Notes: generated from the letters alone by a model not told the origin. 64,000 nucleotides of DNA from Candidatus Levybacteria bacterium RIFCSPHIGHO2_02_FULL_40_18 (GCA_001782235.1 MFOC01000003.1:47851-111850); one strand, 5' to 3'. Positions 35,542-56,891 are shown, numbered from the stretch's first letter. Numbers and translations are program-made.

Positions 35542-36822
35542 ATGCTCTGTTATAATTACTCCATGTTGAAAAAAGAATGGGCGATATCAACCTTTATAAT
35601 TGCAGTATTCCTATTAAGAATTCCCCCTCTATATTTTACCGGCATTAAGAATATATTTCTCACCACACATTCTATAGTGGTTTTAACAATTCCCCTGATT
35701 TTTCTTTACTTGTTTTCCCAAAGATTATACTATAAAAAGAGACTACCCTATTTAAATACTCCCGAAGCTTTATTTGTAGTTATTTTTTTTGCAACACAAT
35801 CTTTGTCTATATTTGGGGCTTCAAATGTTGAAATTTTCCTTCAGAGATACGTAAAGATTATTTTTGGGATTATTGTCTTTATTGCGGTTAAAGAACTCGT
35901 TGCAATAGATAAAAAGATAATCTACAAAGTCCCTATAGCAATTATAGCGGGCGGTTTAATAACATTTGGACTACAGTTGATACTCTTTTTTGCACCTGAT
36001 GTCTATTTCCAATTAGGAGAAACTCTGATTTATAAAAACGTTTACAGCATTACTATTACTAACTTCTCCGTAGGAAAAATCTTTGATGACTCTTTCCTTC
36101 AAACGGTTACCCCCTTTATTATTTATTACCTTGCTTCCAGTAAAAATAAACTTATAATTCCTGTTTTGGTTTCTGCAATGGTGGGAATGGGAATGGTAGA
36201 TTTTGCTTCTAACTTTAGATATAGGGTCATAGCATATGTTGTCTCTCTTGCATCTTCTCTTGGCCTTATTTTTAGGTTCAAAAGAAATTTAATAATTGTT
36301 ATCGGTATAGTTTTTTTAATATTTTTAGTGCTACCTAATGTCGATAAATACTTGAGGCAAAATGTGGGTTTCAGTTTCGTTGATAGAATATTACTGGAGA
36401 GTGAAACTAGAGATATTGCTAGCATCGAATGGCGGCTTAGTGCTTTTGAACAGTCGATACAAATGGCAAGCACGAATATTTTTGGGGTGGGACTTGGTAA
36501 TTTTTTTGATAAATCTCAATTTGTAAACATCCCAAAAACTAACTTTCCCAACTATACTATCACTATTGAAGCTTTGAAAGCCGGGCCTCACAATATATTC
36601 TTTCAGATATTGGCAGAGACAGGACTTCCGGGATTAACATCGCTTGTGATTCTACTTGCATATTTTGTCCGTAAAGACCTGCATATAATCAAAGATAAAA
36701 TGAGCGGGATAAAAACCGCTTATGTGCTTGGTTTTTGGACTCTAATTTTGATAGGTCAGTTTTTCCCAACAAATAATTTTACTTTTTTTACACTTTTCTT
36801 CCTTTTTAGAGGCGCTCTATAG
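35542..36822 (+). CDS. O-antigen ligase/polysaccharide polymerase-like membrane protein (second paralogue)
   Basis: Multi-TM. KAGPHNIFFQILAETGLPGLTSLVILLAYF ligase loop. The true start may be an internal Met, because the listed start abuts the divergent GT4 start. Confidence 0.55.
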   Translation: MLCYNYSMLKKEWAISTFIIAVFLLRIPPLYFTGIKNIFLTTHSIVVLTIPLIFLYLFSQRLYYKKRLPYLNTPEALFVVIFFATQSLSIFGASNVEIFLQRYVKIIFGIIVFIAVKELVAIDKKIIYKVPIAIIAGGLITFGLQLILFFAPDVYFQLGETLIYKNVYSITITNFSVGKIFDDSFLQTVTPFIIYYLASSKNKLIIPVLVSAMVGMGMVDFASNFRYRVIAYVVSLASSLGLIFRFKRNLIIVIGIVFLIFLVLPNVDKYLRQNVGFSFVDRILLESETRDIASIEWRLSAFEQSIQMASTNIFGVGLGNFFDKSQFVNIPKTNFPNYTITIEALKAGPHNIFFQILAETGLPGLTSLVILLAYFVRKDLHIIKDKMSGIKTAYVLGFWTLILIGQFFPTNNFTFFTLFFLFRGAL

Positions 36823-36863: not shown

Positions 36864-36977
36864 ACTCTCTTTTGGCTTTTGAGGGCACTTATTGAAAAAT
36901 CACCAAAGTTAAGATCGCGTGATTCATTCAATCTTACTGACAATGTAATTATCAAAGACAAAGTTGGGGGTTGAAAT
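36864..36977. repeat. 114-bp direct repeat R1 (left boundary of a 5.6 kb cassette). Its last ~55 bp are a 3' gene remnant that, on the minus strand, encodes ...STPNFVFDNYIVSKIE*
   Basis: About 95% identical to 42610-42723. The core tactgacaatgtaattatcaaagacaaagttgggggttgaaa is also related to 47548-47599 and 48606-48660. Confidence 0.7.
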
Positions 36978-37017
36978 GCTTATATTTCTACCGGAACATA
37001 GTGTTATTATTAATGCG

Positions 37018-37191
37018 TGGCTAAAATAATTTACTACACAACAGCAGAAGGCGAAAATCCGGTTAGCTACTTCTTCGACTCTTTAACCAAACGACAACAG
37101 AGTAAAATACTCCGAATAATAGAGGTTATTGAAAACTATGGTTTAATGAGCGTAATTCCACATATTAAAAAACTTTCAGGGAGGTAAAACC
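37018..37191 (+). pseudogene. Truncated phage Gp49-like (HigB/RelE-type) toxin N-terminal fragment
   Basis: GTG-initiated ORF VAKIIYYTTAEGENPVSYFFDSLTKRQQSKILRIIEVIENYGLMSVIPHIKKLSGR* resembles the Gp49/DUF891 N-terminus but ends before the conserved LYELR block. Confidence 0.35.
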
Positions 37192-37245
37192 CTAGACTTC
37201 TTCTTGGCTTCGTAATTCCTTTTATATCTGACTAATTTGATATAA

Positions 37246-38271
37246 TTGTCTACGCAAAAACATAATTTTTTTATGTTTGCAACTTTTATGGAGAAAGAGG
37301 CTATAAAATCGTCCTTTTTACCTTATCCTGACATTCCTCCTATTATCGAACTTGACCCATTCCTAGCAACCTTGCGTAAAATAGAAAAAATTACTCCCCT
37401 TTATGACGGGGTCGCTCATTGTCTATTTCGAGTTCAAGCTGATGGAAAAAGCTTTTTTTTGAAAATCAGAGGTGATCACTTTCCAAGAATACCTGAGATA
37501 ATTACAAATCCAGAAGATATTAAAAATGAATATAAAGCGCTTAGCATATACGGTTCTTTGCTGCCGGATAATTTTCCTCAAGTCGTCTCATTCAATAATA
37601 ATGCTCATTATCTAATAACATCAGATGCTACATTTAATGGTGAGCTTTTCTTAGAAACTTTAGTAAGAGGAGATGTTACAAGAGAAATAGCCTTTAGTCT
37701 CGGACGCACGTTAAGAAGTATTCACGATTCCACAGGTCAACATACGGAAGACCTAAGAAGCGAGGGAGATAGTTTTCATTATGATCAAAAGTTACTGCAT
37801 AGATTTGGATTCCTTCGAAATGTTGGCCTTGATGAAATGGTCCAGAGATTAAGACAAGAAGAAAGGCAATTAGTTTTGGGAGACCCCGCTCCTAAAAATA
37901 TTGGAATGAATAATGATGGATCACTTTTTGTATTTTTTGATTTAGAGGATGCGCATCAAGGAAATCCTGTGTTTGATTACGGTTACTTACTCGGTCACAT
38001 TATATTACATAACTGCCTAATGCCTGGAAAAGCAATGGATTTAATTCAAGGGTATACCGGCGGTTATAACGGTCATGCTTATGACGAGGATATGGTTAAA
38101 AAAATAGCGCTGGGAACGATAAGATATCGCTTGGCAGGACGGATTCCTTATGAAGCACCAAATATTCCCTTTGACTTAAGGTCGGATATTTTAGGTAGCA
38201 TTGAAAACTTTCTTTCAGTCGATCTAGGCAAGGTGAATTGGGACTTTATTTTAGCTAATATACCACAATGA
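37246..38271 (+). CDS. Phosphotransferase (APH/choline-kinase-like) family kinase
   Basis: VLGDPAPKNIGMNNDGSLFVFFDLEDAHQGNPVFDYGY matches the Brenner motif and D-x-E region of APH-type kinases. Confidence 0.5.
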   Translation: MSTQKHNFFMFATFMEKEAIKSSFLPYPDIPPIIELDPFLATLRKIEKITPLYDGVAHCLFRVQADGKSFFLKIRGDHFPRIPEIITNPEDIKNEYKALSIYGSLLPDNFPQVVSFNNNAHYLITSDATFNGELFLETLVRGDVTREIAFSLGRTLRSIHDSTGQHTEDLRSEGDSFHYDQKLLHRFGFLRNVGLDEMVQRLRQEERQLVLGDPAPKNIGMNNDGSLFVFFDLEDAHQGNPVFDYGYLLGHIILHNCLMPGKAMDLIQGYTGGYNGHAYDEDMVKKIALGTIRYRLAGRIPYEAPNIPFDLRSDILGSIENFLSVDLGKVNWDFILANIPQ

Positions 38272-39710
38272 ATAATCTGAACTTAATGCTTATTGGAGTA
38301 GGACCACATGCAAGAAGAATATACTATCCCATTTGTAAAAAGGAAGAAAGTCTTGGGGTTAAAATAATTTGCGGAGTTGATTTAGTTGAGAAAAAGGATG
38401 AAATTGAAAGGTTTCTTGATCTAAAAGAGGACAAGCTACCTATGCTTTATATCTCAAACAATACATACACTAAGGCATTACCGAACGAAGAAAGAGAGAA
38501 GCTAAATAAACTTGTTAAAAAATATAAGATTAATGGTGTTATCATCTCGACGGATCCTTTGGCTCATCTACGATATGCACTATGGGCAATTGATCAGGGC
38601 CTTCACATCTTGATGGATAAACCAATTTCAGCTGTTCCTTACGCCTCAACTGATGAACATGCTGCGGAGGATATTGTTTCTGATTTTTATCTTTTAAAAA
38701 ATCGCCATGAGAAAAAGGGAGCCAAAAAAATTGTTAGCATAATGACTCAAAGGCGATTCCACCCAGCATATACAAAAATTCGTGAACTAGCCGAAGATGT
38801 TTTTAAAAAAACTAATTGCCCAATTACATCTGTTCAGACTTTTCATTCTGATGGTCAGTGGCGTCTTCCATCTGAAATAGTGGATATTGACTACCATTCA
38901 TTTAATCATGGTTTTGGTGAGCTGTTACATTCTGGGTATCACTCATTAGACATTATTTGCTGGTTATTAAGTTCGACTCGAGGAACAAAGAAAGAAATAA
39001 ATAATGTGGATATTTTCTCACAGATAGTACGTCCTACAGATTTTATCTCACAAATAAACTTTCCCGATTATAAAAATTTGTTTGCAGACTTTCCAAAGGT
39101 CAACAAATACTCTGAGAAGGATTTCAGAAATATAACCAAAAAATATGGAGAGATAGACGTTTTTGTTAATTTTGCATTTAAACATAACTCAGACGTAATA
39201 ACTTTAGGCAGCTCGAACTTAGTGCATAATGGTTTTTCCCAACGTGGGTGGCTTATGCCTAAAAAAGATATGTACAAGGGGAACGGAAGAGTTAGACAAG
39301 AAACTATATTTATTGAACAAGGCCCTTTTCAGTCAATCTCCCTAGTTTCATATCAATCAAGCGAGATTAACAAAGACTCAAACAGTGGCATTTTTGATGT
39401 GGGTGGAGAGTACCATTTGGATATTCATGTTTTTAGAAATAGCAGTTTTTACCCAAAATGGAAAACCTATGAAAAATTATCGATTAAAGACTTATCGAAA
39501 AGTACGTTGGAGGGATATTCAAGAGGCCATCAAGAAGACGCAAGAAGAAATGCAATAATTGACTTTATAGAATCTGCAAAAGGTAAGAGACTAAGCCAAG
39601 TATCGAATTTATTGGATCATGAATTTGGTGTTAAACTTATTAGCGGAGCGTACCTTTCAATGGCAAGAAAGATTCACTCCAAGAACCCAGTTGTAAATAT
39701 TTCTCTTTAG
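38268..39710 (+). CDS. NAD(P)-binding oxidoreductase, Gfo/Idh/MocA-like (divergent, 480 aa)
   Basis: N-terminal Rossmann-like LMLIGVGPHARRIYYPI. Start overlaps the upstream stop (ATGA). Confidence 0.35.
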   Translation: MNNLNLMLIGVGPHARRIYYPICKKEESLGVKIICGVDLVEKKDEIERFLDLKEDKLPMLYISNNTYTKALPNEEREKLNKLVKKYKINGVIISTDPLAHLRYALWAIDQGLHILMDKPISAVPYASTDEHAAEDIVSDFYLLKNRHEKKGAKKIVSIMTQRRFHPAYTKIRELAEDVFKKTNCPITSVQTFHSDGQWRLPSEIVDIDYHSFNHGFGELLHSGYHSLDIICWLLSSTRGTKKEINNVDIFSQIVRPTDFISQINFPDYKNLFADFPKVNKYSEKDFRNITKKYGEIDVFVNFAFKHNSDVITLGSSNLVHNGFSQRGWLMPKKDMYKGNGRVRQETIFIEQGPFQSISLVSYQSSEINKDSNSGIFDVGGEYHLDIHVFRNSSFYPKWKTYEKLSIKDLSKSTLEGYSRGHQEDARRNAIIDFIESAKGKRLSQVSNLLDHEFGVKLISGAYLSMARKIHSKNPVVNISL

Positions 39711-39716
39711 AACTAG

Positions 39717-40406
39717 ATGAAGTTTAAAATACTAAATGAGTCTAACCTCAAAAAGGCATCTGGCCTTGTTATTATTGTTGACGTTCTTCGTGCATTCACT
39801 ACTATTTGTTACGTTTTCTCAAATAAAGCAGATAAGGCAATTCTTGTAAAAGGCCCTGAAGAGGGTTTGTTGTTAAAGAGAGAGAATCCTAACTATGTTT
39901 TAATTGGTGAGCGTGGAGGTTTTAAACTTCCAGGATACGACTATGGAAACTCTCCTTACGAGCTAAAGAAGGTTAACTTTTCAGGCAAAACTATTGTTAT
40001 GACAACTTCTCAGGGAACTGCATTTTTCTACAGACTTAGTAAACACTCAGAGTGTAAAGAGCTTATTACTGGAAGTTTTGTCAATGCGTCTTCCATAGTT
40101 AATTATATTAAGCAAAATAAGTATAAAACTATAACATTTGTTTGTACAGATAATTCATATCAAAACAATGAGGATTATATGTGCGTTAAGTATTTAATCA
40201 GTTGTCTAAAAGGAAAACCCCTTAACTTTCAAGAAATAAAAAAGGATTTAACGAAACATCCCGTTGCCGAAAGGTTTATTAAAAAACCCTTAACAAAGCA
40301 TGCTCCGTATGATTTCGAGTTGTCTTTGCAATTGAATAAATTTAGTTTTATAATAAAGGCGAACATGTCAACCAAGCGCATAATTTTAGAACAGATAACT
40401 CTATGA
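39717..40406 (+). CDS. 2-phosphosulfolactate phosphatase (ComB) family protein
   Basis: LVIIVDVLRAFTTICYVF N-terminal motif and ~230 aa length are typical of PF04029. Confidence 0.45.
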   Translation: MKFKILNESNLKKASGLVIIVDVLRAFTTICYVFSNKADKAILVKGPEEGLLLKRENPNYVLIGERGGFKLPGYDYGNSPYELKKVNFSGKTIVMTTSQGTAFFYRLSKHSECKELITGSFVNASSIVNYIKQNKYKTITFVCTDNSYQNNEDYMCVKYLISCLKGKPLNFQEIKKDLTKHPVAERFIKKPLTKHAPYDFELSLQLNKFSFIIKANMSTKRIILEQITL

Positions 40407-41869
40407 GCGCTGAAAATAGGCAAGGGGCTCCAGATAGATTTACGCTCCGTAAAGAATACTTCGGAGGTTTAGTACTTGATTCCCATACTCCTAAAAACGA
40501 ATTTCTTAAGCCTCAAGAATATGAATTTTTAAGCCGACTGAAAGAAGCAGAAGGAGTGTTTTTTGATGCAGTCTTAGAAAGCAACCCAGACCTTACACAA
40601 AGAGTTAATGCGTTTGCTGAGACTGGATTTGTTGAAAAAGGGCCAAATGGAGAAATTATTTTAACAAATATTAGACTAGTCCCTCCACCAGATCAAATAC
40701 GCCATGGGGTCCTTACTGCCCCGATACGTGTTTATGATATGTATACTCGAAGATGTAATCTTGCCTGTGAACACTGCTATGCGGCTAGTAATCCATTTAT
40801 AAAAGAGGACAGACGTACTCTTGAGCAGACTGCTGATATTATGAAGAAATTTTACGATGCTGGAACTATCGAGTGGCGTTTTACAGGAGGAGAACCAACC
40901 GTATACCCTGACTTATTCGATGCAATAGATGTCGCTCAAGGGTTGGGCATGAATGTAAGCATGAATTCAAACGGATGGTGGAGTGAAAAAACTGCACAAA
41001 AGATACTTGAATCTGGAATTAGTGAAATGGTAATTAGTATTGAAGGTGAACCTGGAACAAACGATTTAAGAAGGAAAGTAGGTTCTTACAATCACGTAAT
41101 AGATGCACTTGATAAGGTAGCACATCATAATAGATTTTACTCTGATAAAAAGATAGATGTCGTAATAAATACGGCGGTCGGTAGGGACAATATAAACGAT
41201 GCAGAATTTGTCGTCCGTTTGGCTGCTAAATATGGACATAACGTAAACTTTCTTCCATTAAAACCAAGCGGGAGGGCAAGACATGGTCTCCAATCTGTAA
41301 TGTTAAGTACCAGAGAATGGATGGAATTCTCGAGAAAGGTTCAACAGTTAAGAACTGATCCAGAGATACAAGCCTCGGGTATTAAGCTCACTCATAGATA
41401 CAAGGATCTTTTTTGTCCAACAGCACCTGACCAATCTGGAAAACCTTATCCGTTTAATTATGCAGAATGTGGAGCAACAACAACTGCTATAAGCATGTTC
41501 CCTGATGGAAGAGTTTTTGCTTGTCCCTTTGTGATTGAGTTTGATGTTAGAAATGAATTTGTAGGACCAAATATGATCACTTCGTCAGTTGAAGAAGCTT
41601 GGAATCACGTAAACATTGATAAATTCAGGACAGCAGAAAAAACTCAAGGTTGCACCGATTGTAGCCATTTATCGAAAAGGTGCAGGGGAGCTTGCAAGGC
41701 AACAGTTTTGGGATATGGCGGTGAAATAAAGGATGGAAAATTGGTTGGAGAAGACCCATATTGTTACGTTTCTTTAATAGATGAAGAGGACACAATGATA
41801 CAAGAAAGTAAGGCTCGAGGCCGTCAAATGTTACCATTTATACAGCTTGATGACATCCCCACACTATAA
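40403..41869 (+). CDS. Radical SAM/SPASM-domain enzyme with an N-terminal RRE-like (wHTH) domain. Putative peptide-modifying maturase.
   Basis: CNLACEHCY (CxxxCxxC) at about residue 118. FTGGEPTVYPD. C-terminal auxiliary-cluster cysteines (CPFVIEFD...CTDCSHLSKRCRGACKA...CYVS). The ~100 aa N-terminus YFGGLVLDSHTP...LSRLKEAEG resembles RRE domains. Confidence 0.75.
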   Translation: MSAENRQGAPDRFTLRKEYFGGLVLDSHTPKNEFLKPQEYEFLSRLKEAEGVFFDAVLESNPDLTQRVNAFAETGFVEKGPNGEIILTNIRLVPPPDQIRHGVLTAPIRVYDMYTRRCNLACEHCYAASNPFIKEDRRTLEQTADIMKKFYDAGTIEWRFTGGEPTVYPDLFDAIDVAQGLGMNVSMNSNGWWSEKTAQKILESGISEMVISIEGEPGTNDLRRKVGSYNHVIDALDKVAHHNRFYSDKKIDVVINTAVGRDNINDAEFVVRLAAKYGHNVNFLPLKPSGRARHGLQSVMLSTREWMEFSRKVQQLRTDPEIQASGIKLTHRYKDLFCPTAPDQSGKPYPFNYAECGATTTAISMFPDGRVFACPFVIEFDVRNEFVGPNMITSSVEEAWNHVNIDKFRTAEKTQGCTDCSHLSKRCRGACKATVLGYGGEIKDGKLVGEDPYCYVSLIDEEDTMIQESKARGRQMLPFIQLDDIPTL

Positions 41870-42348
41870 AAAGGGTATCCTCTTCGATATTTGCAACCAG
41901 AATAGAAAACACAACTTGAAATGAAGGTTTGGCGCCTTACAGCTGAAAACCCCTATCTTTTAAAACGCAATGGCTGAACTAGACGCAGTATATGGGGGAT
42001 GTATATCGATTGGCTACTAAAAACATCCCAGATACTGGTGGAAGCATTAGCATTACTCTTTCTCCCTCCAATTGGAGCAGCAGGTCTGCACCTCAAACTA
42101 AAAGCTAGCCTCTAAACAATTTCACTACTAAAAGGGCGGGGCAGAGCGGTTTTGTCTCTTCCAGGTCTTTCCAGCTCATTCCAATTACTTCTTAGACAAA
42201 TTCCAACGACCATCCCATTAAAGAACCTCTCTCCTATCTTTTTTAGACCTAGAGCTTTGACGGCGAAAACTTGACATAATAGCTTTGTCATTCTTGCATT
42301 CTCTTCAGTCTCCTCTACAGAGAATAGTCAGATCTTAATGCTACAAGA

Positions 42349-42720
42349 GTGACTTTTATGACATCGATCCTTCTATCTAAGGCAAGGAGAAGATTAGCGG
42401 CAAAAGACCCTCACAATGTGTTCGCAAGCACTTTTGCAGAAACGGGATTTCTAGGGCTTGGTTCTCTAGTTTTATTACTTTTGTATTTTCTTCAAAAAGA
42501 CATCGGAATCATGAAGAGCAGTAACGATCTATCGAAAACATTTGTTGTTTCTTTCTGGACACTTTTTGTTTTTGCGCTTCTTAACCCTTCCTCATCGATT
42601 ATCTACCAGACTCTCTTTTGGCTTTTGAGGGCACTTATTGAAAAATCACCAAAGTTAAGATCGCGTGATTCATTCAATCTTACTGACAATGTAGTTGTCG
42701 AAGACAAAGGTGGGGGTTGA
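42349..42720 (+). pseudogene. C-terminal fragment of an O-antigen-ligase paralogue that runs into repeat R2
   Basis: DPHNVFASTFAETGFLGLGSLVLLLLYFLQKD...FWTLFVFALL is about 50% identical to the C-terminus of 35542..36822 and lacks the N-terminal ~300 aa. Confidence 0.5.
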
Positions 42721-42723
42721 AAT
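42610..42723. repeat. 114-bp direct repeat R2 (right boundary of the cassette). The minus strand encodes ...STPTFVFDNYIVSKIE*
   Basis: Near-identical to R1 (36864-36977). Confidence 0.7.
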
Positions 42724-43033: not shown

Positions 43034-44308
43034 CTAGCGAGGTCTTGCTTTCTTAGGAGGTTGCATAGTTATTGGGCCTCTAACTAGGGTTAGAAAATTT
43101 TCTTGATTAAAATATTGATTAGCAACCCTTTTAACATCTTCGGCAGTTACCTTTTCTATTTCCTTTTTTATATAATCTGTACTTAAAATTCGCCCTTCTG
43201 TGGCATACGTTGTAGCGTGCCATTGGGCAATAGAGTCGGGGGTCTCAAGAGAATAATACATATTTGAGATGTCTAAAATCTTGGCAACATTAATTTCATT
43301 TTTTTCAATTTTCCCCTCTCTTAACTTTGCTAATTCTTCATGAATGCATGTAAGGGCACGATCTACATTAACAGGAGAAAAACCACCATAAGCAATAAGC
43401 ATCCCTGTATCTTTAAACGTCCAATTCCAAACCCATGTGCTATACGCTATCCCGAGTTCATAAACTAGTTTATTAAATAAACGCGAGCTTGTACCCCCAC
43501 CAAGAATATCTGCAATAACCCGCATAGCGAATCTATCCGGGTGGAGATAGTGTATCCCAGTCACTGTGCCTATCATTAATAGAGCTTGTTGACTATTTGA
43601 ACGTATTTTTTTGATTTTTTTTATGGGAGGCAAAAAGGCAACTTTCTCAATCTCTCTTTTGCTCTTTATAGTTCCCTTGCCGAAATATCTTTGAATATAT
43701 TGATTGAGTTCACGGATATTAAATTTACCCACTATAGAAATCGTCATATTTGATGGATAATAAAAGTTATTAAGGTAATCTCTTAATTGGCTAGGGTCGA
43801 TATTTTTGATGGTAGATCTTTCTCCTAAGGTTGACCTTCCCAAGGCCTGCTCCTTTCCCCAACAGTATTCCATAAACAAATCCCATATCTCTATTTCAGG
43901 AGTATCCTCTTTCCTCTGAATTTCCTCGAGAATTATGCTCTTTTCCCTCTCAACGGATGTTTTATCAAAAGCTGGATTGAATAATATCTCCGAAAGGTAA
44001 TAGAGCCCTTTCTCAAGATATTCTTTGGGAACCTTCACATTATAGGCAATATATTCTTTATCAGTCCACGCTCCGCTTTTCCCTCCGATAGATTCTATAA
44101 CCTGAGCTAATTCTTTTGCTGTCGGATATTTTCTTGTTCCTTCAAATAACATATGCTCTAGAAAATGAGCATGCCCAGCAGATATCTTTGATTCATATCT
44201 TGGTCCGGCATTAACCGCAACATAAATCGCAATTGAATTAACCCAAGGCACCTGTTGAGTAATTACAGTTAACCCATTGCTCAATTTTTGAATCTTAGCC
44301 TTTTCCAT
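43034..44308 (-). CDS. M16 (insulinase/pitrilysin) family zinc peptidase. Candidate leader peptidase of the adjacent RiPP locus.
   Basis: HxxEH zinc motif (GHAHFLEHMLFEGT). About 420 aa with two M16 halves. Confidence 0.7.
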   Translation of the reverse strand: MEKAKIQKLSNGLTVITQQVPWVNSIAIYVAVNAGPRYESKISAGHAHFLEHMLFEGTRKYPTAKELAQVIESIGGKSGAWTDKEYIAYNVKVPKEYLEKGLYYLSEILFNPAFDKTSVEREKSIILEEIQRKEDTPEIEIWDLFMEYCWGKEQALGRSTLGERSTIKNIDPSQLRDYLNNFYYPSNMTISIVGKFNIRELNQYIQRYFGKGTIKSKREIEKVAFLPPIKKIKKIRSNSQQALLMIGTVTGIHYLHPDRFAMRVIADILGGGTSSRLFNKLVYELGIAYSTWVWNWTFKDTGMLIAYGGFSPVNVDRALTCIHEELAKLREGKIEKNEINVAKILDISNMYYSLETPDSIAQWHATTYATEGRILSTDYIKKEIEKVTAEDVKRVANQYFNQENFLTLVRGPITMQPPKKARPR

Positions 44309-44309
44309 T

Positions 44310-45065
44310 TTATTTACCGAGTGCTATCATATATAAAGGGTATTCCCTAATATTCTCAATATCAAGCAGGGATATAATTTGAGATTCAATAAATCCACCA
44401 ATTGGGCAACTTCTTAAACCTAATTCAGTTGCCAGAAGACATATATTTTGGGATAAGTGTCCGGCCTCAATTAACATATACCTGAACTCCCGATCTCCAT
44501 ATTTTATTCGACTCCTATCAGGGATGCCTGTAATTATTATTAAAAAATTTGCATCTAATATCCACTTTTCATTACCCGTACAGGCAAGAACCCATTCCCC
44601 CATGTCTTCTATCAGTAATGCCTCTAGCGCGTTCTCTTTTACATTATAATGATACAATCCCTGCTTTAAACTTTTTACGCCTAATGGAATTAGATATACT
44701 TCTAACGGATATCTCGCTCCCGCAGAGGGGTATGACCGTCTTGAATCATCCATATCTTTTGGCTCAAAAATAAGCCCGGCAACTGTGTATATTAAACTAG
44801 ATAATAACTTGAATGATATATCTTTTTTAATAAACAATCTTGTTGATCGCCTGCTTGATAATGATTTTATTTTTTTAGATAACGCTTTTTCAAGGACAAT
44901 TTTCGGCATACGAGGATAGGTTTTAAAATGAATTGTTATCCACTCTTGGGGAATGACTTCAACACTGTCCTCAAAACTTATGTTTTTAGACTGTTCATAA
45001 AAAACATCAGAGGCGTTTGCTTGTCCGTTAATAAATTCCGCAATTTTCTTTTTCAGTTTTTTCAT
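44310..45065 (-). CDS. SagB-type (nitroreductase-fold, FMN) dehydrogenase, azoline oxidase-like
   Basis: ARYPLEVYLIP...GLYHYNVKENALE...FRYMLIEAGHLSQNICLLATELGLRSCPIGGF are diagnostic SagB/McbC-type motifs. Confidence 0.7.
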   Translation of the reverse strand: MKKLKKKIAEFINGQANASDVFYEQSKNISFEDSVEVIPQEWITIHFKTYPRMPKIVLEKALSKKIKSLSSRRSTRLFIKKDISFKLLSSLIYTVAGLIFEPKDMDDSRRSYPSAGARYPLEVYLIPLGVKSLKQGLYHYNVKENALEALLIEDMGEWVLACTGNEKWILDANFLIIITGIPDRSRIKYGDREFRYMLIEAGHLSQNICLLATELGLRSCPIGGFIESQIISLLDIENIREYPLYMIALGK

Positions 45066-46396
45066 AAAAAGGGATGGGGAATATTATTCAGCTTTTCCTC
45101 TGTCTTGGGCTTGTATCCCATTTTTTCGGGAGAATCAAACAATCTCATTTTGCCAAAATATTTATACCGTTCATCCAGATAAATAGGTTGTAATTCGGGC
45201 GAAACTACCTTAACCACGTGGACTGGATAATCTTTAAATATTGAACTTGTAATTTCTGCGAAGTAGAAATTTACTCCTTTATCTTTTAGGATTTTGGCGA
45301 TTTTATATAAGCTCTCTTGTGCTTCTGTAGTTCTAGAATTGAGTTTGATATTAATTAAATCGCTATTAAGCCAGAAATTTAGATTTTTAATCATTTGTGG
45401 AGAAAACCAATAATATGCTCTGTCCTCTATGGTTCTGATGTCACTTCTTGATTTGTACCTTTTTAGGTTTCTACCAAGAATGACTTTGTCCCTGGTCCAT
45501 GATCTTGTCATCAAGGACTCTTCTATAGCTCCTACTATTACGTTTCTTTTGTCTAGCCCTGCCTTTAAACCAACTGATATTGACGGACCCAATCCTGTTC
45601 TATCTATAATTATTGCACAGACTGAAAAAATTGATAAATCATTGGTAATATTAATCAAATAAACTTCGAGTTGGTACCTTTCTATTTTATTAATAATATC
45701 ATTAATATATAAATCCCTAATACAATTAAGATTTATTCTTCTGCACGGAATTTTATTGAGGTATGCTACCATGAATGAATCTCTTTCGATTAACTCACAA
45801 ATTCCTCTATATATCGCTGTTTCTAGAGTGTCAGCACATGCAGCTCCTGAAGATGTTCCAAATTGAAGCATAGGCTCCATTCTCTCCCATTTATAAGGTA
45901 CATAAATTAATTGCGCTGGCAACAAAAAGTTATTTCCAATAAAAACATTTTTTGATTCGACCCATGAGTAATTTGCATATAAATATTCTTCTTTTTTTAA
46001 TTTTAATCTTTTGATTTGGGGATCTGAGAAAGATAAAAACAAGAGAGGACTAAGCATTTTACTTTTCTCATATTTCTTATTTTTTATAAGAGGTCTCTCT
46101 CTGTCATCTGAAAGAGAAAATCTCTCTATTAATTCGCCAAATAGCTTTTGCAATGCAGATGTTTGTGAAAATGATGTTCCACTAGCAATAGCATCTTCTG
46201 TTCCCTTATTCTTTCTCTCTTTAAATGAAGTATTATATTGAAAAATTTTAGGCTCATCATTATAAAAAGGGGCTCTATGAAAACCATGGAATATATGAGG
46301 ATATTTTTTAAGGAGATCAAAACCTATATCAATTATATCTTGTGAGTTTTTACCCATAAAGGAATACTTAAGCCTGTTTTGGGGCAGATAATCCAA
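45062..46396 (-). CDS. YcaO-domain protein (ATP-dependent cyclodehydratase or amide-activating enzyme)
   Basis: ASGTSFSQTSALQKLFGELIERFS and FGTSSGAACADTLETAIYRGICELIERDSFMVAYLNK (ATP-binding E-x2-ER motifs). Ends ...NIPHPFL. Translationally coupled to the downstream dehydrogenase (4-nt overlap). Confidence 0.8.
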   Translation of the reverse strand: MDYLPQNRLKYSFMGKNSQDIIDIGFDLLKKYPHIFHGFHRAPFYNDEPKIFQYNTSFKERKNKGTEDAIASGTSFSQTSALQKLFGELIERFSLSDDRERPLIKNKKYEKSKMLSPLLFLSFSDPQIKRLKLKKEEYLYANYSWVESKNVFIGNNFLLPAQLIYVPYKWERMEPMLQFGTSSGAACADTLETAIYRGICELIERDSFMVAYLNKIPCRRINLNCIRDLYINDIINKIERYQLEVYLINITNDLSIFSVCAIIIDRTGLGPSISVGLKAGLDKRNVIVGAIEESLMTRSWTRDKVILGRNLKRYKSRSDIRTIEDRAYYWFSPQMIKNLNFWLNSDLINIKLNSRTTEAQESLYKIAKILKDKGVNFYFAEITSSIFKDYPVHVVKVVSPELQPIYLDERYKYFGKMRLFDSPEKMGYKPKTEEKLNNIPHPFL

Positions 46397-46404
46397 GCGT
46401 TATT

Positions 46405-46620
46405 TTATTTACCTTCTCGTATCTCAACGGTTATTCTGCAACGTTGAGTGCAATGTCCAGGAACAGGAGAACGACAAGGACCGGGAGGGGGATTAGGAGG
46501 AAGCGGCGGCGGAGTTCCGCATCTCGAAACCATAGATTCTCCTTTCAATTCACTTGGAAGCCCTGATGTGAATTCCTTCGCATCAGCAATGACTCTTTCA
46601 ACTGTCTCTATATTTGACAT
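46405..46620 (-). CDS. Candidate RiPP precursor peptide (71 aa) with a Pro/Cys-rich C-terminal core
   Basis: MSNIETVERVIADAKEFTSGLPSELKGESMVS | RCGTPPPLPPNPPPGPCRSPVPGHCTQRCRITVEIREGK. Near-consensus SD (taAGGAGGTGAtaacta ATG). Ends 9 nt upstream of the YcaO start. Confidence 0.5.
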   Translation of the reverse strand: MSNIETVERVIADAKEFTSGLPSELKGESMVSRCGTPPPLPPNPPPGPCRSPVPGHCTQRCRITVEIREGK

Positions 46621-46936: not shown

Positions 46937-47230
46937 TTACTCGGCGATACCGTCGTAGATAAATTTCTTAATCAGTGCCTGATATGGAATATCCATTTTG
47001 TGAGCCTCTACTTTAACCCTATCGATTAAACCAACCGGTAGGCGAATTGTAATAGGCTTAGTAGTAAGTTTTAAATTTGGGAAAATTACATGCCTTGCAG
47101 TTGAATAATCTACATACTCTGTTGAGTCTACTTTTTGCCAGAACTCTCTTTCCTCTTTTTCTGTTTTAAATTTTGGTATTGGCTTTAGCTTTTTTTTCTT
47201 CATACAACCTCCTTTCTTTTTTATTTGCAA
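46937..47230 (-). CDS. brnA: BrnA-like antitoxin (RHH/CopG-type). Probable true start at the internal Met MKKKKLKPIPKF.
   Basis: EEREFWQKVDSTEYVDYSTARHVIFPNLKLTTKPITIRLPVGLIDRVKVEAHKMDIPYQALIKKFI matches the BrnA family pattern. Confidence 0.55.
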   Translation of the reverse strand: MQIKKKGGCMKKKKLKPIPKFKTEKEEREFWQKVDSTEYVDYSTARHVIFPNLKLTTKPITIRLPVGLIDRVKVEAHKMDIPYQALIKKFIYDGIAE

Positions 47231-47519
47231 GTCTTGCAGAAATTATCCTTATCTTGTTATCTCTTTTTGTAAATACCGTGAACAACGTTCTGTTATCATT
47301 TGACTTACCTATTCCTATAAATCTTCCTTCCTCCTTAGAATGTTTTATGTCATCTTGGAAAAAAAGATATTTATCAACAAATACTTCCTCTGCTTCTCTT
47401 GGAGTAATTCCGTGTTTTTGATAGCTTTTGTCAACATTCCACTTATCCCATTCAAATCCGGTAATCTTACTCAAATCCGTCACTGTACATATATTACATG
47501 TACAAGTACGTGTTGTCAA
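47166..47519 (-). CDS. brnT: BrnT-like toxin (DUF497 ribonuclease)
   Basis: FEWDKWNVDKSYQKHGITPREAEEVF...IRIISARLANKKERRLYEE matches DUF497 motifs. Confidence 0.6.
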   Translation of the reverse strand: MTTRTCTCNICTVTDLSKITGFEWDKWNVDKSYQKHGITPREAEEVFVDKYLFFQDDIKHSKEEGRFIGIGKSNDNRTLFTVFTKRDNKIRIISARLANKKERRLYEEKKAKANTKI

Positions 47520-47547
47520 GCACTAAACCTCTGTGGACGTCACAGTT

Positions 47548-47599
47548 ACTCAATTTTACTGACGATGTAGTTGTCGAAGACAAAGGTGGGGGTTGAAAC
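47548..47599. repeat. R3, a third copy of the conserved 3' gene-end element (minus strand STPTFVFDNYIVSKIE*) abutting the AbiEii gene
   Basis: cagttactcaattttactgacgatgtagttgtcgaagacaaaggtgggggttgaaaca. Confidence 0.6.
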
Positions 47600-47618
47600 A
47601 CTTATTGTTTCCTTTTGT

Positions 47619-48260
47619 TCACTCTAATTTTCCCTTCATATAGGTTTCGACCTCTTGTTTCAAGGTCGAAGTAATTTGTTCGTAAGAGTAATTTTCTCCT
47701 ATAAATTCTATCGGCGTTTGTTCAAGGTCTTCAAAATATACGAGTTGCTCAAGAAATTGAACCTCAACAAAAAAACTACCGCATTTTTTTACTGCGAATT
47801 TTACTATATCGTCAAGTGTCAACAGTCTCTTTTTTAGAACAACAAAAATATCAACATAATCGCGCCAGGTTGCTCGTCTTCCGATGGTGTACGCTTTGTC
47901 AGCTGCTATATCCTTTACACTTGCTAAAGCAAGGTACGGTGTTTCTACTCGCGGGAACGCGGGTTTGAAATCCTGCACAACAAATGTTATGCCAATATTG
48001 CTTTTAAGAATAGTAAAGGTTACTTGCTCGGAAGTATTCCATTTGTAGATAACTTTCCCGAATTTCTCCCTTATTTTATTTTCTAATGATTTTTTAATTG
48101 GATCGTCTACAAATATATCAAAGTCATAAGAAGTTCGATGCCCTATTTGAAGTGCAAGGGCGGTTCCGCCGGCAAGATATCCTTCATCTCGGAAGTCTAC
48201 TAGCTTCTTTAATATCTCTCTGCGGTCATGGTCTAATATCTCGAGGAATATTTTTGACAT
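47619..48260 (-). CDS. Nucleotidyltransferase, AbiEii/AbiGii toxin family (DUF1814)
   Basis: RREILKKLVDFRDEGYLAGGTALALQIGHRTSYDFDIFV is the conserved AbiEii N-terminal block. Confidence 0.6.
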   Translation of the reverse strand: MSKIFLEILDHDRREILKKLVDFRDEGYLAGGTALALQIGHRTSYDFDIFVDDPIKKSLENKIREKFGKVIYKWNTSEQVTFTILKSNIGITFVVQDFKPAFPRVETPYLALASVKDIAADKAYTIGRRATWRDYVDIFVVLKKRLLTLDDIVKFAVKKCGSFFVEVQFLEQLVYFEDLEQTPIEFIGENYSYEQITSTLKQEVETYMKGKLE

Positions 48261-48537
48261 ATAAGAGTTCGCTCATATCACGATCTTCAAGATTTAGGAG
48301 TATATTTTTAACGAAATAAAAGCGTGCTTTTCGATAATCTTTAAATGCCGTGGTTGTGAAAGTTTTTATAATCTGTGAGGCTCCATATTTCTCAAACAAC
48401 CAAAGGATTTCATCCAATCCTCCGTAAGATAGTATCTGATGAATAATATAGTTCTTATCCCGTTCAGAATTGAGCTTACGCACACCACTGGACCATAAAA
48501 CGCTTTGAAGTTTCTGAGGAATTTTTTTTTGCTGCAT
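48226..48537 (-). CDS. Hypothetical small protein upstream of AbiEii. Possible cognate antitoxin-like partner.
   Basis: Overlaps the AbiEii start. No confident domain. Confidence 0.25.
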   Translation of the reverse strand: MQQKKIPQKLQSVLWSSGVRKLNSERDKNYIIHQILSYGGLDEILWLFEKYGASQIIKTFTTTAFKDYRKARFYFVKNILLNLEDRDMSELLYVKNIPRDIRP

Positions 48538-52868: not shown

Positions 52869-53672
52869 ATGGATGAAATTTACGTAAATATAGCCGATTT
52901 CAATATACTAATCAAAATCCAGCCGCAGGAAACTACCAACAATCCGCCTTACGATTTCATCAGAAACAGACTGTTAACCGATTTGGTTTCTTATTTAGGT
53001 CAATTTATAATTTTAGAAAAGCCTGGAAAAGTTGATTTTGAAATTAATTTTATTGAAGCATGGAACTTACAAATACTGCGAGTCAAAAGTGACAATATCA
53101 GTTACATTCCTCTTTATGAAGAAATTTCGTCGTCTAAGTTTTTAACCTATTTTTTAAACAGCATCTATCAATTCCAGTTAATCTTAAAATACGCTGTCCA
53201 TGAACTTTTGGACAAATCCAGTGGGTTTTTAATCCACTCTTCCGCCGTCAAAATCAACAACAAGGCTTACTTCTTCTTAGGCAAGTCTGCGGCTGGTAAA
53301 TCGACCATTGCCACAATGCTTGCTGACAGATACCCAAAAATCGCAGATGATACAAGTCTTGTTAAAAAAGAGGGTAATCAATTTTTTTTCTACCAAACTC
53401 CATTTTTTGACAAAAATTGGGTCAATAAACACTCCGAGAGATTAAAAATGGGCAAAATGTTTTTTTTAAAAAAAGCCAATTTCTTTAAAGTAGAGAAAAT
53501 CGAAGATAAAGAGCAAATTCTCAACTATTTCTTGAAGGGTTATGTCGTTAACCTCAACAAAATCTCAACCAAAAATGTACTAAAATTTGTCAATAAATTC
53601 GACAACTTCTACATGCTTTACTTTGCAAAAAACCCGGAGAAAACAATAAGACTAATTGAATCCCTTAAATGA
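52869..53672 (+). CDS. HPr-kinase/phosphorylase-like P-loop protein (the RiPP-associated HprK-like kinase type)
   Basis: FLGKSAAGKSTIATMLADR P-loop in the C-terminal half. 267 aa. Overlaps the start of the PqqD-like gene. Confidence 0.4.
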   Translation: MDEIYVNIADFNILIKIQPQETTNNPPYDFIRNRLLTDLVSYLGQFIILEKPGKVDFEINFIEAWNLQILRVKSDNISYIPLYEEISSSKFLTYFLNSIYQFQLILKYAVHELLDKSSGFLIHSSAVKINNKAYFFLGKSAAGKSTIATMLADRYPKIADDTSLVKKEGNQFFFYQTPFFDKNWVNKHSERLKMGKMFFLKKANFFKVEKIEDKEQILNYFLKGYVVNLNKISTKNVLKFVNKFDNFYMLYFAKNPEKTIRLIESLK

Positions 53673-53920
53673 TCAAACTCAAAAAAGGCATAGTCTCTCA
53701 AAAAGTCGGTCAAAAAACCACCATTTTTGACGGCGAGAAGTCAGTTCTTTATACTTTTAACGAAACGGCATCATTCATATTTGACCAGCTCAAAAAAGAG
53801 GCAAAATTGGAAAAAATTGTAGATTTGATGGCAAAAAAATTTAATGTCAAAAAAGAGACTGCAAAAAACGACGTTGAAGAATTTGTCAAAACCTTAAAAG
53901 CTAAAAAAATTGTTTCCTAG
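53669..53920 (+). CDS. PqqD-family protein, RiPP recognition element (RRE)
   Basis: LYTFNETASFIFDQLKKEAKLEKIVDLMAKKFNVKKETAKNDVEEFVKTLKAKKIV matches the PqqD fold pattern (L..N.TA..IW..L.G..T..EI...L...Y.V..E.A..DV..F...L). Confidence 0.55.
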   Translation: MIKLKKGIVSQKVGQKTTIFDGEKSVLYTFNETASFIFDQLKKEAKLEKIVDLMAKKFNVKKETAKNDVEEFVKTLKAKKIVS

Positions 53921-55362
53921 TAGCCGATTGACCTAAGATCACCTGCGCTGTCATCTTCGGTAGAAAACTGTCCGGGTACTTCATTGCTCTTCCATTCAAT
54001 TGGCAGGTTGTAATCGGAAAGATATTCTAAAAGGTCATCCCGGAGTTTTCCCAGTTCCTTTGTCCTTTCGCCGGCCAAATTTTTTGTCTCGTTGGGATCG
54101 GCCACAAGGTCATACAGCTCTTCGTGCCAACTTTCAAGAAGACAGGACTGCGGCAAGGAATAGATATACTTTAAATTGTCCCTGACAATTGCAAACTTGG
54201 AAAAATAGCTGTTGGCAAAAATAGCCCTTTTTCTGGGCGCCGGTATTATTTTGGAGAATTTACCGAATTGTCCTGCAAAACTCTTTCCGTCGAAACTGCC
54301 CTTTTTATAATCAATGCCCAGAAAATCCAAAATGGTCGGCAAAATGTCAACATCTTGTATCAAAACGTCTGATTTTTCCCCCGATCTGCCCTTGGCTGGA
54401 TCAAAAATTATAAGCGGAATCTTGATCGATGAATCGTAAAGAACCTGCCTGTGGTTGAAATAATAGTTGTGATCAAATCCTTCTCCGTGGTCGCCGTATA
54501 AAACCACCAGGGTGTTTTTATCAAGACCCAGCTCTTTAAGATTATCCAAAATTTTACCTACCAGTCTGTCGGCCGCAGCAACCTCGCCATCGTAAAGAGC
54601 CTCCATAAGCTCTATCCTGTCTTGAGGAACCGGATTATTTTGGCAGGATTGATACTGGGCCCGAAGTTCTTCAAGTTCCTCAAGGTTTTTGCCAGAAATT
54701 TCATCGCAGAATTTACTGTTAAATTTGCACCTCAAACCCCCGGGGGCAAAGTAGGGTGCGTGGGGATCGACAAGATGCACCCAGAGAAAAAACCGCCCTC
54801 CATCCTTGCTGCTTTTCAAAATGTCGGCAGAACTTAAAATAAATTTCTCGTAATCTGCCCTTTCGGTCATAGTAAACCTTTCGTTATATTCCGCCTTTGC
54901 GCCATTGTAGTAAAACGATTTGAACTCATGGGTATTGAATACCTCAAACCCCTGATCCAAAGCACTGCCGATGGTGGAATAACCCGCGGTAAAAAACCCG
55001 TTTTGGGCAAGAATACTTGTCAAAGTTTTGTTGTTCTCACTGACCAGAAGACCTGAATTTGAAATAATTCTGGTCTTTGCCGGATCCTTGCCGGTAAAAA
55101 GAGCCGCCATCGAAGGATGAGTCATGGGAACGGCTGTAGCGGCGTTGGTAAAGACTGCTGCGCTTTTTGCCCACTTGTCAATATTGGGAGTCGTATCTTT
55201 TCCATAGCCATATACGCCCATATGGTCAGGGCGTAGGGTATCAATTGAAATTAGAAGAAGATTTTTAGGGTGAGTTGGGGTAAATACGAATTTCCAAACG
55301 AGAGCGAGAAACAAAAAAAGTGTTGAATATATTACTATCCGCCTAAATTTAACTTTGAGCAT
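53917..55362 (-). CDS. Sulfatase-like (PF00884) exported hydrolase or transferase, paralogue of 29481..30899
   Basis: LLISIDTLRPDHMGVYGYGKDTTPNIDKWAKSAAVFTNA. YGDHGEGF. The nucleophile region reads ATAVPMTHPSMAALFTG, with Thr where sulfatases have the formylglycine Cys. Confidence 0.7.
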   Translation of the reverse strand: MLKVKFRRIVIYSTLFLFLALVWKFVFTPTHPKNLLLISIDTLRPDHMGVYGYGKDTTPNIDKWAKSAAVFTNAATAVPMTHPSMAALFTGKDPAKTRIISNSGLLVSENNKTLTSILAQNGFFTAGYSTIGSALDQGFEVFNTHEFKSFYYNGAKAEYNERFTMTERADYEKFILSSADILKSSKDGGRFFLWVHLVDPHAPYFAPGGLRCKFNSKFCDEISGKNLEELEELRAQYQSCQNNPVPQDRIELMEALYDGEVAAADRLVGKILDNLKELGLDKNTLVVLYGDHGEGFDHNYYFNHRQVLYDSSIKIPLIIFDPAKGRSGEKSDVLIQDVDILPTILDFLGIDYKKGSFDGKSFAGQFGKFSKIIPAPRKRAIFANSYFSKFAIVRDNLKYIYSLPQSCLLESWHEELYDLVADPNETKNLAGERTKELGKLRDDLLEYLSDYNLPIEWKSNEVPGQFSTEDDSAGDLRSIGY

Positions 55363-55366
55363 AAAT

Positions 55367-56620: not shown

Positions 56621-56687
56621 TAAGATATTTTAACACGCAGGCAAGCCCGTAATTGTTTCATGTTGTACTAAAGTCTTAAAGAAAAAT

Positions 56688-56891
56688 CTAGGAGGCACTA
56701 TTGGTCATAAGGCACAGAGCACAGGTGGTAGAACCACATGAGGCACAGGTGATAAGAGTGTTACATGAACCTTGCGCATACACAGACGATCCGAAGAGTT
56801 CTTCCGCTGAATCGATAAACCTGCTACTTAAAAAGAAGTTTATCTTGACTCTTTGCTCTTTTATCGCAGGCTTGCTGTATTTTTTTTTCAT
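56688..56891 (-). CDS. Candidate RiPP precursor peptide (67 aa) with a Cys/Ser/Thr-rich core
   Basis: MKKKYSKPAIKEQRVKINFFLSSRFIDSAEELFGSSVYA | QGSCNTLITCASCGSTTCALCLMTNSAS. The start overlaps the stop of the upstream 168-aa gene (ATGA). Confidence 0.55.
   Translation of the reverse strand: MKKKYSKPAIKEQRVKINFFLSSRFIDSAEELFGSSVYAQGSCNTLITCASCGSTTCALCLMTNSAS

Follow-up and report, generated by a model that had tools for sequence, protein, structure and literature searches.

Our analysis concerns a cassette of four genes in a stretch of 64,000 nucleotides (nt) from Candidatus Levybacteria bacterium RIFCSPHIGHO2_02_FULL_40_18, a member of the Candidate Phyla Radiation (CPR). We call the whole stretch the window, and all coordinates are given in window numbering. 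The cassette lies between two direct repeats, R1 and R2, and encodes an APH-family kinase, a divergent Gfo/Idh/MocA-like oxidoreductase (GFO), a ComB-like phosphohydrolase and a radical S-adenosylmethionine (SAM) enzyme with a SPASM domain. These four genes, or subsets of them, are a conserved module that is widespread in ultra-small (CPR) bacteria. Across genomes GFO is the invariant hub of the module. It always occurs with a kinase (of the APH or the Tmk/P-loop type) and a phosphohydrolase (ComB, NUDIX, HD or HAD), and in the window's branch it is joined by a radical SAM/SPASM enzyme with an RRE-like domain.

We favor a module centered on a new Gfo/Idh/MocA-like family. With moderate confidence we read the cassette as one copy of an uncharacterized small-molecule module that acts on a nucleoside, nucleotide or phospho-sugar, and not as a cluster for a ribosomally synthesized and post-translationally modified peptide (RiPP). 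The strongest clue to the chemistry is that kinase and phosphatase are replaced by non-orthologous enzymes around a constant GFO. A nucleotide substrate is favored because of the associations with nrdJ, Tmk, NUDIX, HIT, PyrH and a phosphoribosyltransferase (PRTase). The original prediction, made from the window's sequence, had put a sactipeptide- or ranthipeptide-type maturase first and a small-molecule or sugar pathway second. It is the second that fits better; the linked genes are mostly nucleotide and not carbohydrate genes.

In the literature we searched, there is no published description of the APH-GFO-ComB-radical SAM combination. The conserved GFO family, the interchangeable kinase and phosphatase, the fusions and the recurrent link to a ribonucleotide reductase (RNR) make of a single odd locus a module that is well delimited and open to testing. 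CPR bacteria are not known to synthesize nucleotides de novo, and for the majority of their conserved proteins no function is known. If the substrate is indeed a nucleotide, no radical SAM enzyme of the SPASM/RRE type would have been found in nucleotide metabolism before this one, which could reveal a new way to deoxy- or antiviral nucleosides. If there is a hidden peptide instead, the cassette would represent a new peptide-derived cofactor system in CPR.

A conserved module around GFO

The features of the cassette are as follows.

37273..38271 (+), APH-family kinase; Pfam APH, 34 bits (cutoff 23), 3e-8
38268..39710 (+), GFO, a 480-aa divergent Gfo/Idh/MocA-like NAD(P) oxidoreductase; Pfam Rossmann match, 21.8 bits (cutoff 24)
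39717..40406 (+), ComB-like (2-phosphosulfolactate-phosphatase family) phosphohydrolase; Pfam PF04029, 141 bits
40403..41869 (+), radical SAM/SPASM enzyme; Pfam Radical_SAM 69 bits, SPASM 25 bits
40439-40681 (+), RRE-like domain within the radical SAM enzyme, residues 13-93
40754-40777 (+), CX3CX2C motif within the radical SAM enzyme, residues 118-125
41468-41764 (+), seven-Cys SPASM within the radical SAM enzyme, residues 356-454
41870..42348 (no strand), lineage-specific spacer with the tiny open reading frames (ORFs) of the original prediction; about 55 nt past the radical SAM stop are common to the closest relative, the remainder is unrelated

All four genes point in the same direction. 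The first and second overlap by 4 nt, as do the third and fourth, and 6 nt separate the second from the third. GenBank labels each of the proteins "hypothetical protein". The identities that had been suggested for them from the sequence hold. Gene callers start the kinase gene at the ATG at 37273, and the longest ORF begins at a TTG at 37246; a promoter-like site lies ahead of the gene at 37237-37266. Residues D213, N218 and D232 of the kinase are invariant among 15 orthologues.

Gfo/Idh/MocA enzymes are recognized by an N-terminal Rossmann fold with a GxGxxA motif, an (E/D)-K-P motif and a C-terminal substrate domain with catalytic His/Asp. GFO has the motifs of this family: G10-x-G12, D117-K118-P119, H225 and D228 are all invariant. 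The Pfam Gfo/Idh/MocA score of the window protein is below the cutoff, which several of its relatives pass. A profile of the GFO family matches the Gfo/Idh/MocA chains in PDB only over the Rossmann part (E 6.5e-4), and PDB sequence searches with GFO and the kinase returned only the Rossmann region and weak PsiK and MTR-kinase matches. The phosphohydrolase is not ComB proper. Its best NCBIfam equivalog score is 113 against a cutoff of 235, all other equivalogs are also below cutoff, and no ComA- or ComC-type gene is found among the recurrent neighbor families of the cassette.

We compared 34 cassette loci, no two of them identical, from Patescibacteria, Omnitrophota and other groups; their outer flanks are unrelated. 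The radical SAM gene is accompanied by GFO at 32 of the 34 loci (adjacent in nearly all of them), by ComB at 27 and by APH at 22. Clustering of the neighboring genes yields a fifth recurrent gene, a class II RNR (NrdJ-like, 570-594 aa), which lies beside the cassette at 18 of the 34 loci and also at L095 and L096. This gene is mostly divergent from the kinase gene, 0-90 nt apart, and the head-to-head pairing is seen in about 15 distinct lineages (L039 2056-3771; L041, L043, L049, L051, L052, L089, L096 and others). It matches Pfam Ribonuc_red_lgC at 6e-62 and scores 315 bits with TIGR02504 against the NrdJ equivalog cutoff of 400. By our reading of the L039 sequence, the NrdJ-like protein seems to stop right after the barrel and to have no C-terminal Cys pair. 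On the radical SAM tree, nearly all of the main clade shows linkage to the RNR. The one subclade that lacks it is made up of the window, L008 and L001, and there is no RNR gene in the 64-kb window. We also considered a B12 riboswitch, for which the intergenic DNA between cassette and nrdJ offers too little room; between 30 and 48 kb of the window there is no Rfam match at E<=1.

The RNR is not the only gene of nucleotide metabolism in or beside the cassettes. HIT genes (five loci), an NTP_transferase gene, an archaeal-type UMP kinase gene (199 bits, above cutoff) and an orotate-PRTase-like gene are sometimes added there too. The orotate-PRTase-like gene comes with a HAD phosphatase, and a sugar-1-phosphate nucleotidyltransferase is inserted together with a second APH and a methyltransferase.

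For GFO, a profile search gave more than 1800 relatives; the radical SAM enzyme has 399 matches, about 100 of them close. An exhaustive GFO search gave 281 representative clusters at E<1e-30. GFO orthologues without a radical SAM partner are found in Tmk-GFO-NUDIX operons (L092 and L097) and in a GFO-Tmk-like-NUDIX arrangement (L093). They are 45-50% identical to the window GFO and keep all of the roughly 95 invariant residues. In yet other proteins GFO is fused to further domains: HD+GFO (P0258), GFO+NUDIX (P0315 and P0330), GFO+HAD (P0378) and GFO+P-loop kinase (P0342). It also occurs joined to a beta-eliminating lyase as a single polypeptide (fusion set P0258, P0315, P0330, P0342, P0378 and P0331). 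These natural fusions could be used as Rosetta-stone constructs for substrate finding. A phage origin was considered and dropped, as there is no GFO relative in IMG/VR and one weak match in GenBank phages.

One locus deserves separate mention. In L094 (1-12576), whose composition is outside the CPR-like range, a TIR_2, STAND ATPase and TPR protein of 1057 aa is directly followed by an operon of radical SAM, APH, GFO and NUDIX genes. There is also a second GFO paralogue, with another TIR-NTPase-like protein behind it, and the arrangement hints at a defence-island role for the module.

The radical SAM enzyme and the search for a precursor

The fourth protein of the cassette has a radical SAM core and a full SPASM domain: C118, C122 and C125 and the seven SPASM cysteines do not vary among 37 sequences. 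In about 100 homologues, at 42-89% identity, the match extends over at least 92% of the protein and takes in the N-terminal domain, which holds an invariant R16-x-E18-Y19-F20-G21-G22...D26 motif. In the AlphaFold model (mean predicted local distance difference test, pLDDT, 88.9) three strands, three helices and a hairpin lie ahead of the barrel. A full-length Foldseek search is led by the RiPP maturases SuiB, SkfB and CteB (E 4e-18 to 5e-15), with 459 aligned columns for SuiB. For the isolated N-terminal domain (pLDDT 84.5) SuiB again ranks first, but nothing falls below E 0.1. Pfam PqqD does not match this domain, and the MftB hidden Markov model (HMM) gives sub-threshold matches in 19 of 25 N-terminal domains. 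On balance of this mixed evidence an RRE-type fold is supported, and the extra N-terminal domain that had been proposed from the sequence is real. Peptide binding by this domain is putative only.

No curated maturase family takes in the enzyme. The NCBIfam scores are 110 against a cutoff of 265 for MftC (the best), 62 against 625 for StsB, 61 against 340 for PapB and 55 against 300 for SkfB, and no equivalog is reached. The defence-system models of PADLOC match the generic radical SAM core only. The pVip model scores 73 bits over profile positions 7-152 of 257, and viperin_w_prok of NCBIfam scores 58 against a cutoff of 180; in place of the C-terminal nucleotide-binding region specific to viperin, the enzyme carries SPASM. 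At its C-terminus there is an extension of about 30 aa (41785-41869, residues ~462-488) that ends in ...GRQMLP(F/L)I..DDIPTL and is predicted to be disordered. It is kept only in the window's subclade (window, P0001, P0003 and L008).

A RiPP maturase needs a peptide, and we searched for one among small ORFs, at 13 loci and then at all 34, and also among intergenic ORFs of 12-100 aa alone with the threshold relaxed to E<0.05. Even then no conserved small ORF was found beside the 34 cassettes, nor in ten paralogous clusters with several radical SAM genes (ORFs under 12-15 codons and unlinked precursors were outside the search). Apparent small-ORF clusters turned out to be alternative frames of big genes, low-complexity sequence or apparently tRNA-derived sequence. 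The original prediction had found no convincing precursor either, which agrees with our result; the conserved short ORFs that it suggested looking for in related genomes were not found at the 34 loci.

It had nevertheless named two tiny ORFs as candidates. The 16-aa ORF MAELDAVYGGCISIGY, which has an MftA-like "GY" ending, sits at 41970-42020 and not at 41966-42014, and the other lies at 41992-42108. Nucleotide homology with L008 (81% radical SAM identity) ends exactly at the radical SAM stop at 41869, and homology with the closest relative, L098 (89% radical SAM identity), ends about 55 nt past it, near 41923. Therefore the candidate ORFs lie in lineage-specific DNA. This DNA is absent from L098 and L008, neither ORF is conserved there, and we rejected both as precursors. 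Nor is a protease or peptidase, or an exporter or transporter, recurrently linked to the cassette at the 34 loci. The system does not correspond to mycofactocin: MftA and MftD/MftE/MftF are missing among the recurrent neighbors. A link to the neighboring YcaO/SagB/M16 operon was rejected as well, since no homologues were found near the cassette in the loci scanned by tblastn or among the recurrent neighbor families. With precursor, protease and exporter all missing and equivalog cutoffs missed widely, a sactipeptide- or ranthipeptide-type maturase is not borne out.

One could still argue for a RiPP or peptide-derived cofactor pathway of the mycofactocin or pyrroloquinoline quinone (PQQ) type. 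Here the MftC-like radical SAM/SPASM enzyme would receive a precursor, unlinked or very short, from the MftB-like RRE fused to it, and the kinase, oxidoreductase and phosphatase would tailor the excised product. In favor of this, the NCBIfam family closest to the core is MftC (110 bits) and that closest to the N-terminal domain is MftB (19 of 25), the β-hairpin motif is of the R-x-E-x-F-G-G type, and the seven-Cys SPASM is complete. Unlike in mycofactocin, however, a single protein holds both parts, the two scores fall far short of the equivalog cutoffs, and the partners are a kinase, GFO and a phosphatase in place of an MftA-like peptide and MftD/E/F. Among solved structures, SuiB, CteB and SkfB come nearest in fold along almost the whole protein, and the N-terminal domain aligns to the SuiB RRE, but identity is 13-18%, and the cassette has nucleotide-type partners and neighbors and no precursor, leader peptidase or exporter. 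We consider a peptide-derived cofactor unlikely, given that no conserved small ORF was found at the 34 cassettes or the ten paralogous clusters, that the proposed candidates fall in non-conserved DNA, that neither peptidase nor transporter is linked, that the MftC, MftB, PapB, StsB and SkfB cutoffs are all missed, and that the set of GFO, kinase and phosphatase occurs without any radical SAM enzyme.

More distant relatives of the enzyme (24-44% identity) belong to another conserved cluster (L019 7703-14263, L020, L021 and L024 7175-15450). It consists of a B12-binding radical SAM protein, a 330-aa radical SAM/SPASM protein, one to four RRE-like radical SAM/SPASM paralogues and a DUF4922/ATP-adenylyltransferase-like protein, together with a NUDIX domain (fused in L024) or an ORF of about 200 aa. 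Paralogous radical SAM enzymes from the same clade are fused to NUDIX in L024 and P0103 or clustered with ATP-adenylyltransferase-like (DUF4922/ATP_transf) genes. The ORF of about 200 aa has no Pfam match, and we read it as MazG-like. Hosts of this cluster are Berkelbacteria, Buchananbacteria, Bathyarchaeota and DPANN archaea, and no conserved small ORF was found in it.

Candidate chemistry and substrate

For a small-molecule module, we propose the following steps. The kinase would phosphorylate a hydroxyl of a nucleoside, a nucleotide or a nucleotide-linked or phospho-sugar. The radical SAM enzyme and GFO would then jointly alter the sugar ring by redox chemistry that is both radical-based and NAD(P)-dependent, with GFO as dehydrogenase or ketoreductase; the outcome could be deoxygenation, keto formation or epimerization. 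Finally, the ComB-like enzyme would take off the phosphate. What we observe are the families of the proteins, the conserved order of the genes, the replacement of kinase and phosphatase by non-orthologous enzymes, the fusions and the linkage to nucleotide genes; the substrate, the sequence of the steps and the product are inferred. The identity of the substrate is the weakest link of this proposal; an NDP-sugar (NDP, nucleoside diphosphate) would also fit the Gfo/Idh/MocA fold and some of the glycan contexts.

A comparable set of enzymes is known. In Cordyceps, a kinase, a phosphohydrolase and an oxidoreductase convert adenosine to 3'-deoxyadenosine (cordycepin), and the phosphohydrolase and the oxidoreductase are an obligate pair (PMC8869658). 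By analogy, the classes of Cns3 (kinase), Cns2 (HD phosphohydrolase) and Cns1 (oxidoreductase) may have their counterparts in the module, where the three co-vary and are found fused (HD+GFO in P0258). The likeness is drawn at the level of enzyme class; the kinase and phosphatase folds are APH and ComB in the cassette, and there is an extra radical SAM enzyme.

Sugar-ring deoxygenation is also carried out by pairs that contain a radical SAM enzyme. AprD4/AprD3 is a radical SAM dehydratase with an NAD(P)H reductase, and viperin occurs with the nucleotide kinase CMPK2. As in the cassette, a radical SAM enzyme is paired with a reductase or a nucleotide kinase, and the cassette enzyme partly matches pVip models in its core. 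Viperin differs in that it has neither SPASM nor an RRE-like domain, and the likeness to AprD may extend to the enzyme logic only.

Several points weigh against a nucleotide-type small-molecule module. The radical SAM enzyme itself resembles a peptide maturase, with its two-cluster SPASM, its RRE-type N-terminus with the invariant R-x-E-Y-F-G-G, and SuiB, SkfB and CteB as best structures. Tmk, NUDIX, HD and HAD proteins are generic, and the adjacency of nrdJ and tmk in tiny CPR genomes may in part be inherited synteny. Sugars or cyclitols are the usual substrates of Gfo/Idh/MocA enzymes, and there are glycan genes close to this locus and to L093, so that a free sugar or an NDP-sugar is equally compatible with the data. 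Also, the parallel with cordycepin would rest on enzyme classes and not on sequence homology of GFO to Cns1.

The sugar argument can be taken further, to a cell-envelope pathway in which a modified sugar or NDP-sugar is added to a surface polymer by the surrounding glycosyltransferase/Wzy locus. Gfo/Idh/MocA enzymes often oxidize NDP-sugars at C3. The window cassette sits among GT2, GT4, two Wzy_C, Bac_transf and carbamoyltransferase genes, L093 is near GT2, flippase and Wzy genes, and L096 is beside a GlmU-like gene. L010, L040 and L096 add an NTP_transferase and a second APH, an arrangement known from AmgK/MurU. However, the glycan context is not conserved and the ancestral neighbor is nrdJ. 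In L008, the relative at 81% identity, the cassette has a MarR/efflux pair on one side and purA on the other, and no glycosyltransferase is recurrently linked to the cassette among the neighbor families of the 34 loci. An envelope sugar therefore seems improbable to us.

Another possibility is that the RRE-like domain binds a protein, for example the apparently tail-less NrdJ-like reductase, and that the radical SAM enzyme modifies this protein or makes a radical on it. SPASM enzymes such as anSME and QhpD do act on proteins, and the pairing with the divergent NrdJ-like gene (315 bits against the cutoff of 400), seemingly without a C-terminal Cys pair, is tight. But a protein maturase leaves kinase, oxidoreductase and phosphatase unexplained, and there is no adjacent RNR in the window, L008, L004 and the whole GFO-radical SAM subclade. 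The RNR also appears to keep motifs like the three catalytic-Cys motifs of class I/II RNRs. GFO was considered as the protein substrate and rejected, because its C-terminal tail and its invariant residues are the same with or without the radical SAM enzyme. We regard a protein maturase as very improbable.

Returning to the small-molecule module, a more specific version can be imagined, to which we give little credence at present. The module would make a sugar-modified (deoxy, keto or epimerized) nucleoside or nucleotide by a new route that supplements or replaces RNR-type chemistry, using a dedicated NAD(P) ketoreductase alongside a radical SAM/SPASM enzyme whose RRE-like domain has taken on a new task. 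The product could be a back-up deoxynucleoside or an antiviral nucleoside. If CPR bacteria used the module as a back-up source of deoxynucleosides that does not depend on B12, its conserved head-to-head arrangement with nrdJ would be accounted for; if the product were a chain-terminating antiviral nucleoside, so would the operon with the TIR-STAND protein in L094.

The repeats and the surrounding loci

The repeats and the features next to them are as follows.

35542..36822 (+), Wzy-1, an intact Wzy_C/O-antigen-ligase-like gene; Pfam Wzy_C, 49 bits
36864..36977 (+), direct repeat R1, an orphan copy of the end (some 37 codons and the stop) of another Wzy gene, of the Wzy-2 type
37017..37187 (+), 56-codon remnant, like the N-terminal half of a HigB/Gp49-type toxin; tblastn/tblastx to L010
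42349..42720 (+), 3' fragment (last ~100 codons, last quarter) of a Wzy-2-type O-antigen-ligase gene; BLASTP to Wzy-1
42610..42723 (+), direct repeat R2, the native 3' end of the Wzy-2 fragment

The direct repeats that had been reported to bound the co-directional genes were confirmed. In an ungapped comparison R1 and R2 are identical at 109 of 114 positions, the first 84 nt are identical, and all five mismatches fall within the last 30 nt. A repeat finder lengthens the pair to 130 nt at 92% identity. R1 and R2 are the sole copies of the repeat within the window, where a 50-nt core occurs exactly twice and in none of 100 shuffles. Nine contigs of this organism, which stem from independent assemblies with different samples and assemblers, show 100% identity across this region. 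Hence, the repeat-flanked arrangement is not an assembly artefact. Some public contigs end inside R1 (L034 at 36893 and L033 at 36947) or about 200 nt before R2 (L031 at 42411). Such breaks could be repeat-induced fragmentation, or they may reflect heterogeneity of the population for the cassette.

R2 is the end of a gene fragment. The ORF at 42349-42720, which ends in R2, is 53% identical to residues 349-401 of Wzy-1 (BLASTP, E 3e-14), so the proposed fusion of the right repeat to a 3' pseudogene of an O-antigen ligase stands. The reading frame of R1 corresponds to the tail of the same ORF, and R1 begins 41 nt after the stop codon of Wzy-1. A decayed Gp49/HigB-like toxin had also been proposed next to R1. 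The 56-aa ORF at 37017-37187 has one weak match only (L010 5572-5733, 33% over 53 aa, tblastn E 8e-7), to a HigB/Gp49-type region that sits beside an HTH antitoxin (tblastx E 3.9e-5). A Pfam scan of the ORF gave no match, and a toxin remnant is plausible but not proven.

The simplest explanation is that the repeats would be a local scar of homologous recombination at the tail of a Wzy gene and not a feature of the module. The acquisition by recombination that had been suggested earlier is in our judgment right, because R2 forms one piece with its Wzy fragment and R1 stands alone behind a complete paralogous Wzy gene, because the mismatches are confined to the last 30 nt, and because there is no integrase or transposase between the repeats (ORF calls and Pfam), GC content shows no anomaly and equals that of the flanks, and repeats do not flank the module at three other cassette loci (L008, L006 and L041). 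A single homologous (Campbell-type) crossover between a resident remnant of the Wzy-2 tail and a circular DNA would suffice. The circular DNA would have brought the toxin remnant, the module, the spacer and the 3' fragment of Wzy-2. The crossover would have moved the module from its ancestral nrdJ neighborhood into a glycan-synthesis locus, between two copies of the Wzy tail. We infer this history, since no cassette-less allele was found. The lack of an empty site counts against it: when the Wzy and M16 proteins of the flanks were looked up by exact match, only window-identical, cassette-bearing contigs came back.

It is hardly credible that R1 and R2 are the mark of a self-mobile element, for example an integrative cassette or a transposon. 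Direct repeats do lie on both sides of the block, there is debris of a toxin-antitoxin (TA) gene at the left end, and the cassette is found in many genomic contexts, but no recombinase lies between the repeats, which are a gene tail and not sequences like attachment (att) sites or target-site duplications, are missing around the other loci examined, and homology with relatives ends at gene boundaries. In L006 there is a 99-nt direct repeat (9390-9488 and 10685-10783, 91% identity) around a Fic gene just downstream of the cassette, and its sequence is unrelated to R1 and R2.

The window also holds a TA and abortive-infection cluster (BrnT/CopG-like, AbiEii and DUF6922) at 46937-48537, between a YcaO operon and glycan genes. 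This cluster, combined with the HigB remnant (37017-37187), characterizes the region as a variable island.

Directly to the right of R2, on the minus strand, lies what appears to be a complete azoline RiPP operon of the thiazole/oxazole-modified microcin (TOMM) type (43034-46620). In other genomes no such operon accompanies the cassette.

45062-46396 (-), YcaO
44310-45065 (-), SagB-type nitroreductase
43034-44308 (-), M16 peptidase
46405-46620 (-), 71-aa ORF ahead of YcaO with a Pro/Cys-rich C-terminal half (...SRCGTPPPLPPNPPPGPCRSPVPGHCTQRC...), the likely precursor

A second RiPP-like locus is found at 52869-56891.

52869-53672, ScmC-like protein; PF27840 in precomputed matches, none in our own Pfam scan
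53669-53920, PqqD, 58 bits
53917-55362 (-), sulfatase-like gene
55367-56620 (-), NTP_transf_5 protein
56688-56891 (-), 67-aa Cys-rich ORF (...GSCNTLITCASCGSTTCALCLMTNSAS)

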